The notes under the pieces: model-generated | Seen by the model: the letters and a program-made list of their open reading frames with translations, nothing else | Databases searched by the model: none | What the model was told of the DNA's origin: nothing | Shown here: in pieces, positions 29,122-30,154 of the stretch | How the letters are laid out: each line of letters opens with the position of its first letter | Numbering within the stretch: the first letter of the stretch is position 1 | From: a virus | Lineage: Duplodnaviria > Heunggongvirae > Uroviricota > Caudoviricetes | Direction: 5' to 3' (one strand) | IMG/VR virus record: IMGVR_UViG_2737471827_000002 | Span: 1-32,272 of that record | DNA: 32,272 bases | Position numbers and translations under genes: made by a program

Positions 29122-30154
29122 CGCACCAATCTGTGCAATCCAGAGCTTCGAAGGTGCGGCCCCGTTCTTCTGGGTCCAGCGGTTCGAATAAACCTCCCCC
29201 ATGAGTTCCCACAGCTTCCACGCCGTTTCCGTCGCTGATAAATCCGTTTTCACGTTCCCACTGCTCACGTGCTGCCCGAATTTCCTGAACTGCCCGTGAT
29301 GCGGTGCCACCTGGTGCTGCTGCATGGTTCCCCCCCTTGCTGACTGGTTTAACCTGCGCCCTGACGTGATTTACGTGACGGGCGAATTTCTGCTCCCACT
29401 GAACCTGTGTGAAAACTTTACCCTCCGCTGCCCAGTAGTCCCGGAAGGCGGCAAGTTCAGCTGGTGTAAATTCCGGCTCCGGCAGAGCCACTCCCCACAG
29501 AGCTGCCCGCCGTCGAAAATCCGGCGACGGATGCCAGCCATCAGTCATCGGAAATTTCCCGATGGGTTCGCTCAGGCCTTCCAGGTAATCAGGTTCCGCT
29601 GCCTGCAACGGCACGCCATTCGACTCACTGGTCGGAGCACTCTCGCGCACGCGCGCGTTATGTGTGGGGTTTAATTCTTTATCTGTATCTTTATCTGTCG
29701 TGACTCGTCGTGACATGTCGTGACATATGCGTGACTCGTCATGCCCCTCCTCATTCTGTTTTCGTAATTTTTCCCTCTCGCGCTGCGCTCTCTTGCGCTC
29801 TGCCGGGGATTTCGCGGTTTGTGAAACGTTGCCATTGTCCTCTTTCAGTACCTGGCGTTTTTCCCATCCAGAGATTAAATCTCCATCAAGTACCCGCCCC
29901 TGCATTGCCTGTAAAATTGAATCAATTACCTCTTCCGTCACATCAAGCGCACTTGCTAAATCCTCCGTCGTGACATCAATGTGACCACGTAGTGACACGC
30001 CGTGACATGTCGTGACATTTCGTGACGCGCTCACCAGAAGGTGGATATACACAGCCATCACTGTTGCGATTGGCTGTCCTGACACCCTGGAAATTGTTCG
30101 CCACTTAGGATCATTTGGCATGTCATGCCATAATCTGAGCCAGGCGTTAGCCAT
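29114..30154 (-). CDS. Replication initiator, O-like, with iteron arrays inside its coding sequence
   Basis: About 346 aa from ATG at 30154 (SD AAGAGG); two arrays of GTGAC-type repeats with about 10.5-bp period lie inside the gene. Confidence 0.6.
29697..29735. repeat. Iteron array A: four copies of (G/C)TCGTGAC at 10-11-bp spacing, flanked by AT-rich segment 29666-29696
   Basis: Copies at about 29697, 29707, 29717 and 29728; adjacent AT-rich direct repeat CTTTATCTGT twice. Confidence 0.6.
29970..30026. repeat. Iteron array B: six copies of GTGAC(A) at 10-11-bp spacing
   Basis: GTGAC at 29970, 29981, 29992, 30002, 30012 and 30022. Confidence 0.6.

Follow-up and report, generated by a model that had tools for sequence, protein, structure and literature searches.

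Two helix-phased repeat arrays inside the initiator gene of a lambdoid prophage: a predicted two-part replication origin

We analysed a stretch of viral DNA of 32,272 nucleotides (nt) (IMG/VR virus record IMGVR_UViG_2737471827_000002, positions 1 to 32,272; hereafter the window) and found that its replication-initiator gene contains two separate arrays of the same short direct repeat. Both arrays are predicted to be binding sites for the N-terminal domain (N-domain) of the initiator that this gene encodes, and together they would form a two-part origin of the iteron type, a reading to which we assign a probability of roughly 0.6. Binding of the initiator, unwinding at an AT-rich tract and a positive role of the second array, as an enhancer or by looping, are the parts that we infer. 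The comparison of sequences gives good support to two points: both arrays are protein-binding sites under selection, and their specificity is linked to the N-domain that the surrounding DNA encodes. An earlier note on this DNA had placed both arrays in the coding sequence of an initiator gene, and this was found to be correct: they lie in a minus-strand open reading frame (ORF) at 29114-30154 or, counted from its furthest start, 29114-30160, upstream of the gene for a P-like helicase loader.

Array 1 occupies positions 29697-29735, and its plus strand can be read directly as GTCGTGACTC GTCGTGACAT GTCGTGACATA TGCGTGAC. The GTGAC cores start at 29700, 29710, 29720 and 29731 on this strand, that is, in steps of 10, 10 and 11 base pairs (bp), and appear on the coding (minus) strand as four direct copies of GTCACG. 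The array had been described as four copies of (G/C)TCGTGAC at a spacing of 10-11 bp. Four phased copies are indeed present, although their fit to that motif is looser, with three exact units of GTCGTGAC and one of TGCGTGAC. A fifth position (29738-29745) is degenerate in the window and intact in most close relatives. Array 2 lies at 29967-30028 and consists of six direct copies of GTCAC(G) on the coding strand at a spacing of 10 or 11 bp. On the plus strand its GTGAC cores start at 29970, 29981, 29992, 30002, 30012 and 30022 (steps of 11, 11, 10, 10 and 10), and these are exactly the six copies reported before at 29970-30026. Array 2 is upstream of array 1 in the direction of transcription, at a separation of about 235-290 bp or some 25 helical turns; on informal inspection the distances between the arrays were largely set by the conserved length of the protein, and no conclusion on phasing was drawn from them. 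A single inverted core is found at 29937-29941, 33 nt downstream of array 2, with GTCAC on the plus strand and GTGAC on the coding strand, where it forms part of the codons for D-V-T. The arrays share one motif, one orientation and a helix-phased spacing, as do the direct repeats of iteron-type origins.

Such an arrangement is not expected by chance. The heptamer TCGTGAC occurs nine times in the window against an expectation of 3.4, a count that was reached in 0 of 100 shuffles, and the arrays account for six of the nine, on one strand throughout. For CGTGAC the count is 25 against 13.7 expected, eight of them within the arrays. When the whole window was scanned for chains of at least four same-strand 5-mers spaced by 10 or 11 bp, only the two arrays were recovered (lengths 6 and 4), and a chain of four or more appeared in none of 200 first-order Markov simulations. 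Tandem Repeats Finder reported a period of 10 for array 1 and array 2 alike. Further clusters of the motif in the 32-kb window, such as would mark a distant second origin like oriR of SPP1, were not found; there were scattered single copies only.

Directly downstream of array 1, by the direction of transcription, there is an AT-rich, strand-asymmetric tract at 29666-29696 (coding strand AGATAAAGATACAGATAAAGAATTAAACCCC), which is a candidate DNA-unwinding element. The AT-rich segment noticed previously beside array 1 is thus real: the GC content of 29660-29699 is 32.5%, the minimum of the initiator gene, with an AT skew of -0.56, and TCTTTATCTGTA occurs twice within the segment. An AT-rich element that adjoins the repeats is a feature of iteron-type origins, and array 1 has it. 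We take array 1 and this tract together as the probable origin core. The order of iterons and then an AT-rich tract, within the initiator gene and ahead of the loader gene, is the anatomy of an origin core of the ori-lambda or SPP1-oriL type, a point that is well supported at the level of sequence. No DnaA box, with up to one mismatch allowed, was found near the arrays within the initiator gene.

The AT-rich tract abuts array 1 only. Around array 2 the GC content is 47.5-55%, and the nearest dip (40% at 29900-29939) is much weaker than that beside array 1. Array 1 of most relatives leads into a (GATAAA/GATACA)n tract, in some the sequence at this place is GA-rich, and A-rich hexamers never follow array 2. 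These observations bear on the idea that array 2 is a second, independent origin. Its copies are at least as many as those of array 1, as might be expected of an origin in its own right, but with no AT-rich or low-GC tract beside it, either here or in the relatives, we consider a second origin very improbable.

To see how general the layout is, the gene was compared with its homologues in a scan limited to one genome per species, which gave 52 loci from gamma- and betaproteobacteria and 49 usable genes, the window's own included. Both arrays were present at corresponding positions (about nt 116-180 and about nt 350-480 of the gene) in 41 of these 49 genes. The presence of two arrays, which the earlier note had regarded as unusual, is therefore the standard layout of the family; the comparison with related prophages, which the same note had proposed as a check, showed selection at the DNA level on both of them. 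Escherichia phage Evi, Aeromonas phage pAEv1818 (65% nucleotide identity) and Pseudomonas phage P7869, for example, carry both arrays with a GTCACG core at corresponding positions, and in all three GATAAAGAT... follows array 1. The copy number is less constant. The window has six copies in array 2 and four in array 1 (6+4), 6+5 is the usual combination in close relatives, and more distant ones show 4+3 to 4+5, so that array 2 ranges from four to six copies; in counts made on close relatives the combination (6,5) was found 53 times and (6,4) 24 times.

The motif differs between members of the family, and the two arrays of a gene always match. GTCAC was found in both arrays in 24 of the 49 genes, GTAAC in both in five, and GAACG (as CGAACGC) in both in 12. 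Seven genes have neither array, one (locus L043) has GTCAC in array 1 and no array 2, and a discordant pair was found in no gene. Members of the GTCACG class come from Escherichia, Aeromonas, Pseudomonas, Bordetella and Chromobacterium. We constructed a neighbour-joining tree from 77 columns of the N-domain outside the part encoded by the repeats, and the GTAACG genes fell in at least four separate places in it. L025 and L027 (both GTAACG) adjoin L026 (GTCACG), L038 (GTAACG) adjoins L019 (GTCACG), and L032 and L040 (both GTAACG) stand among the CGAACGC genes, where one GTCACG gene, L030, is also found. The classes are scattered over the tree, which therefore indicates several independent switches, with both arrays changing each time. 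With regard to L043, which comes from a metagenome-assembled genome of Noviherbaspirillum, its array 1 consists of three copies of ATGTCACGCC at nt 363-390 of the gene, and its closest kin belong to the CGAACGC class. It is a natural variant lacking array 2 and likely reflects a recent switch of motif.

The ten direct copies in the window are spread over all three reading frames; the repeats therefore belong to the DNA and not to the peptide. We also looked at synonymous sites, comparing codons of conserved residues whose third base lies inside a copy with such codons elsewhere. In the GTCACG class (25 sequences, median protein identity 64%) the fraction of the major codon was 0.95 in copies and 0.53 elsewhere (p=3e-7), and in the CGAACGC class the corresponding values were 0.99 and 0.58 (p=2e-5). 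The inverted copy behaves in the same way: all of 21 GTCACG-class genes encode its Val residue by GTG, whereas other Val columns use three to four codons. In L027, of the GTAACG class, this Val codon is GTT, which gives an inverted GTAAC, and the synonymous change thus tracks the motif class.

It could still be argued that the arrays have no function at the DNA level and arose incidentally, through a repetitive peptide, codon usage or slippage during replication. They do lie in segments that the protein seems to tolerate, a loop and a linker, and the copy number changes in slippage-like steps; the difference between the window and Evi, for instance, is one in-frame step of 21 bp, or seven codons. 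Yet the copies occupy three frames and one motif gives different peptides in different members (L032, L038 and L025), and on these two grounds a repetitive peptide was rejected as the explanation. In addition, synonymous positions are fixed across genera, the 10/11-bp phasing is strict and the two arrays switch motif together, and arrays that are mere by-products are hardly credible.

The gene is a mosaic, and its structure shows what the repeats travel with. By megablast, positions 29102-29696 are 95% identical to the C-terminal half of the ydaU gene of Rac-SA53, and phages Evi, Tritos and others match positions 29676-30200 at 87% identity. The stretch covered by both matches (29676-29696) falls exactly on the AT-rich tract, which is the joint of the mosaic. 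YdaU of Rac-SA53 has the AT-rich tract and the C-terminal half in common with the window, its N-domain is different, and there are no GTCAC arrays in its gene. Because the tract is retained there with another N-domain and without the arrays, the repeats are inherited together with the N-domain. The (GATAAA/GATACA)n linker looks like a recombination hotspot at which modules of N-domain plus iterons are swapped between C-terminal domains (C-domains).

A different binder of the repeats was also considered, be it a factor from the host or some further regulator of the phage. Searches by structure and by sequence did not match the N-domain significantly to any characterised initiator, which leaves room for such a binder. 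However, close relatives from the same host groups can differ in motif, and the motif follows the N-domain module, not the host or the C-domain; the GTCACG class crosses the host genera listed above; and the exchange of the N-domain in Rac-SA53 is accompanied by loss of the repeats, with the AT-rich tract and the C-terminal half retained. Binding by some other protein is improbable for these reasons.

Some further observations were made on this group of genes. The ydaU gene of Rac-SA53 (L004), whose N-domain is of the DUF1376/YdaU type, has repeats of its own at 2105-2158, TGTTCAAACA / TGTTTGAACA and GTTGCTTTTGTGTTTG / CAAACACCACACCAAC, beside the same AT-rich tract, and these are candidate iterons of a Rac-type origin. 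Within the region of the window gene that encodes the DnaT-like domain, TGACGTGATTTACGTGAC at 29362-29379 contains a pair of ACGTGA(C) 11 bp apart; the pair is probably unrelated to the iterons, since ydaU of Rac-SA53 has it too, without the arrays. In L049 (Serratia) and L054 (Pantoea), where the gene begins at nt 1501, the same N-domain occurs without arrays and is joined to a different C-terminal part (...YVYYVATTDGDVVRVGISRNPWARCKDLK...), reminiscent of domains of the GIY-YIG/T5orf172 type. Apparently, the N-domain has a second use that is independent of origins.

The initiator has 346 residues when translated from the ATG at 30154, which is the start in the RefSeq annotation of a 99.9%-identical locus; the ORF defined mechanically begins with the GTG at 30160. 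It is composed of a winged-helix-like N-domain (residues 1-100), a disordered linker (about 101-195) and a DnaT-like domain for binding single-stranded DNA (ssDNA) at residues 197-269. The protein matches PHROG 1408/15931, 'replication initiation protein'. Residues 197-269 were recognised as Pfam DnaT (PF17948, E=3.7e-18, 65.4 bits against a cut-off of 25) and match the DnaT chains in the PDB with E values of about 1e-20 (6aep, E=1.9e-20); for the NCBIfam DnaT equivalog the score of 96.5 is below the cut-off of 201. On the N-domain no Pfam family, Phage_rep_O included, was found, either with the whole protein at E<=0.01 or with residues 1-135 at E<=10. The name 'O-like' given to the gene earlier is consequently right as to position and role, and does not extend to the protein itself, in which the N-domain has no Phage_rep_O or other curated match and the C-domain resembles DnaT.

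A model of residues 1-170 was calculated with AlphaFold2 from an alignment of 48 sequences. It contains helices at residues 2-11, 16-25, 29-45, 63-70 and 74-84 and a hairpin at 85-96, with a predicted local distance difference test (pLDDT) score above 90 in the core. The loop at 46-62 was modelled less well (pLDDT below 50 at 49-55), and residues 138-170 are disordered (pLDDT below 50). The shape of the N-domain in this model is winged-helix-like. When it was compared with the PDB using Foldseek, nothing significant was found; the best E value was 0.57, and CAP, MarR and a plasmid RepA were at the top. Array 2 encodes residues 43-63 or thereabouts and thus the loop between the helices 29-45 and 63-70 of the N-domain, and array 1 encodes residues 140-153, approximately, in the disordered linker between the domains, to which the AT-rich tract contributes codons as well. 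Judging from the model, both arrays sit where the protein tolerates them, one in a low-confidence loop and the other in a disordered linker.

The position of array 2 suggests one more idea, namely that the loop which it encodes (about residues 45-62, next to the wing) helps to read the iteron, so that the sites and their reader would lie in the same nucleotides. The remainder of the domain hardly differs between classes; L019 (GTCACG) and L038 (GTAACG) are 85% identical and have the same helix, EQIQAILDAMQ; members of the GTCACG class have 'RGH' without variation, as those of the CGAACGC class have 'RGR'; and L043, with GTCAC in array 1 only, retains RGH without the coding constraint. On the other hand, the loop peptides differ widely within a class, with the motif in different frames (L025, L032, L038, L026 and L030), and the loop is modelled at low confidence. 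A reading loop is thus a rather remote prospect. If it were true, origin specificity could switch in one concerted step.

If the arrays are the two parts of an origin, its operation may be pictured as follows. Early rightward-type transcription would yield the Cro-like, CII-like, initiator and P-like proteins. As the copies follow one another every 10-11 bp and have the same orientation, initiator monomers would be loaded next to each other along a single face of the DNA. The complex on array 1 would destabilise the adjoining AT-rich tract (29666-29696), and the single strand so exposed would be held by the DnaT-like C-domain, which would recruit DnaB of the host jointly with the P-like loader. 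Array 2 would be an accessory cluster, which may raise the local concentration of the initiator and/or make a bridge to array 1. Such bridging would occur by protein-protein contacts, with a DNA loop of about 25 helical turns, and would stabilise the origin complex. We favour an accessory role of this kind in view of two analogues, crr of P4 and the extra iterons in Stx phages. Plasmid replication from Stx-phage origins requires their two additional iterons, even though these are bound weakly (PMC7466680).

Array 2 might, however, exert its effect in the opposite direction. As an element of negative control it could be a roadblock on transcription of the initiator and loader genes, or it could act by titration or handcuffing, with array 1 or with sister copies. 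That array 2 has no AT-rich tract of its own is compatible with this, as is its place inside the transcribed initiator gene, upstream of array 1; its copies vary between four and six, a lineage without it exists (L043), as expected for a modulator, and there are precedents in the plasmids P1, F and RK2. What speaks against it is that no promoter-like sequence lies near array 2, that limitation of copy number would be of little gain to a lytic phage, and that nothing in the data favours repression, as conservation and concerted change are neutral with respect to sign. We therefore hold negative control to be unlikely, although it deserves to be taken seriously. In the earlier note it had been suggested that one array may represent autoregulatory sites. 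We obtained no positive support for this suggestion: a sigma-70-like promoter was not found anywhere in 29000-31100, and array 2 is set back about 130 nt into the coding sequence, at a long distance from the region of the early promoter. Autoregulation through array 2, by a roadblock or by titration, is possible.

Several points weigh against a two-part origin and should be set beside the evidence in its favour. A search of the literature found no binding or replication experiment for any member of the initiator family. The conservation of array 2 and the concerted change of motif fit a positive and a negative effect of this array alike, and the concerted change could in part be due to gene conversion between the arrays, or to exchange of the segment from array 2 to array 1 as a cassette. 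The test on synonymous sites is partly circular, as the columns were picked because they bear the motif, and the number of switches is approximate, given a tree of 77 columns in a recombining family. Finally, array 2 is missing in L043, which has array 1 only, and both arrays are missing in seven genes, so array 2 is dispensable in some lineages.

The predicted origin resembles ori-lambda in many respects. It is embedded in the initiator gene, where the linker between the domains is encoded; in the direction of transcription the iterons come before the AT-rich tract and the gene for the P-like loader comes next (PMC7466680); and the iterons move with the N-terminal DNA-binding module, whose joint is at the origin. 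In lambda and Stx phages ori-lambda is located in gene O and contains four or six iterons and an AT-rich tract, and extra iterons, which some relatives possess, affect replication (PMC7466680). The differences are also clear. The units in the window are abutting direct repeats of 10-11 bp with a core of 5-6 bp and no dyad, whereas lambda has dyad-symmetric iterons of 19 bp; there are two arrays, with array 2 (4-6 copies) in the coding sequence of the DNA-binding domain, in contrast to one contiguous array in lambda; and the C-domain is DnaT-like. Membership in the lambda O family was ruled out, as there is no Phage_rep_O match and there are no 19-bp dyad iterons in a single array.

Similarly, oriL of SPP1 has initiator repeats and an AT-rich unwinding element inside gene 38, followed by the loader and helicase genes (PMC5737612, PMC6316719). 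In SPP1 the second binding region of G38P, oriR, is non-coding and kilobases away, whereas in the window the second array is about 260 bp away in the same gene. The initiator does not belong to the G38P family, since alignment with hhalign gave a probability of 0.05% (48-sequence profile) and there is no Pfam hit, Phage_rep_org_N included. The sole links to G38P are the label 'phage replisome organizer' that NCBI gives to the initiator's family and a weak match to PHROG 4880, 'replisome organizer' (E=1.3e-5). We looked for paired arrays in SPP1 gene 38 as well and found no comparable pair; in ydaU of Rac-SA53 there is one inverted-repeat cluster only.

Origins with two clusters are known from other replicons, among them P4 (ori and crr), RK2 (oriV with 5+3+1 iterons), P1 (incC and incA) and F (incB and incC). 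The second cluster acts there by looping or pairing, with a positive effect in the case of P4 crr and a negative one in P1 incA and the three-iteron cluster of RK2. As in these replicons, the window has a second cluster with the same motif, matched to the first, and only one of the two is beside a known or candidate unwinding element. The initiators are unrelated (a primase-helicase, alpha, in P4 and Rep_3/TrfA proteins in the others), and the second cluster of these replicons is intergenic or kilobases off, whereas both clusters of the window are initiator coding sequence. With the primosomal protein DnaT of E. coli (primosomal protein I) only the C-terminal ssDNA-binding domain, residues 197-269 of the window protein, is common. 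The window protein is therefore to be seen as a candidate origin-binding initiator of a phage rather than as the host restart factor DnaT.

The surroundings of the gene are those of the early-right replication module of a lambdoid E. coli prophage. Directly downstream of the initiator gene, at 28660-29121 on the minus strand, there is the gene for a lambda-P-like helicase loader, annotated as 'replication protein P' in RefSeq, which matches Pfam Phage_lambda_P (E=8e-16) and PHROG 109, 'P-like helicase loader'. Its frame is open to 29325, about 200 nt ahead of the annotated start at 29121, and shares sequence with the 3' end of the initiator gene. The first matched residues of this ORF, 56 for Pfam and 19 for PHROG, are likewise ahead of the annotated Met69. 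PHROG 15931 matches both the initiator and the loader, as if the two were fused in some phages. Upstream of the initiator gene we found a YdaT/CII-like gene, a YdaS/Cro-like gene and a divergent CI-like repressor gene. Just past the repressor, in the immunity region (31445-31923, plus strand), there are genes for a PaaA2-type antitoxin of 63 residues (Pfam PF21217, E=3e-22) and a ParE toxin of 95 residues (E=5e-17). Near the start of the initiator gene a perfect palindrome of 15 bp, TGGCATGTCATGCCA, was noticed at 30116-30130, where it encodes the invariant residues W-H-D-M-P. Among relatives the Asp codon is GAC in 96% and the His codon is CAT in only 60%, which makes a constraint on this palindrome at the DNA level doubtful.

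The module (29690-30160) is very common. It was found in 2186 of 5426 complete E. coli genomes (40%), in up to five places per genome, and matches to the N-domain fall into about 950 protein clusters at 90% identity. The N-domain is carried by 24 phage records, none of which is a classical model phage. In three E. coli RefSeq entries (NZ_CP043825, NZ_AP045177 and NZ_CP062204) the homologous initiator gene is labelled 'pyocin large subunit', which looks like a mis-annotation. Our searches of the literature found no description of the origin of this initiator family.

The two-part layout would provide a precise and testable map of the origin for very common lambdoid prophages, including many in pathogenic E. 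coli. Since array 2 is the coding sequence of a tolerant loop, a clean separation of its function as DNA from the function of the protein would be possible by synonymous recoding. The family may also be regarded as a natural series, in which the specificity of initiator and origin has switched several times with an almost constant recognition helix and with arrays that are always matched, and hence as a compact system for studying the evolution of replicon specificity and incompatibility. Prophages that reside in the same cell and have the same motif could cross-activate each other or compete for each other's initiators.

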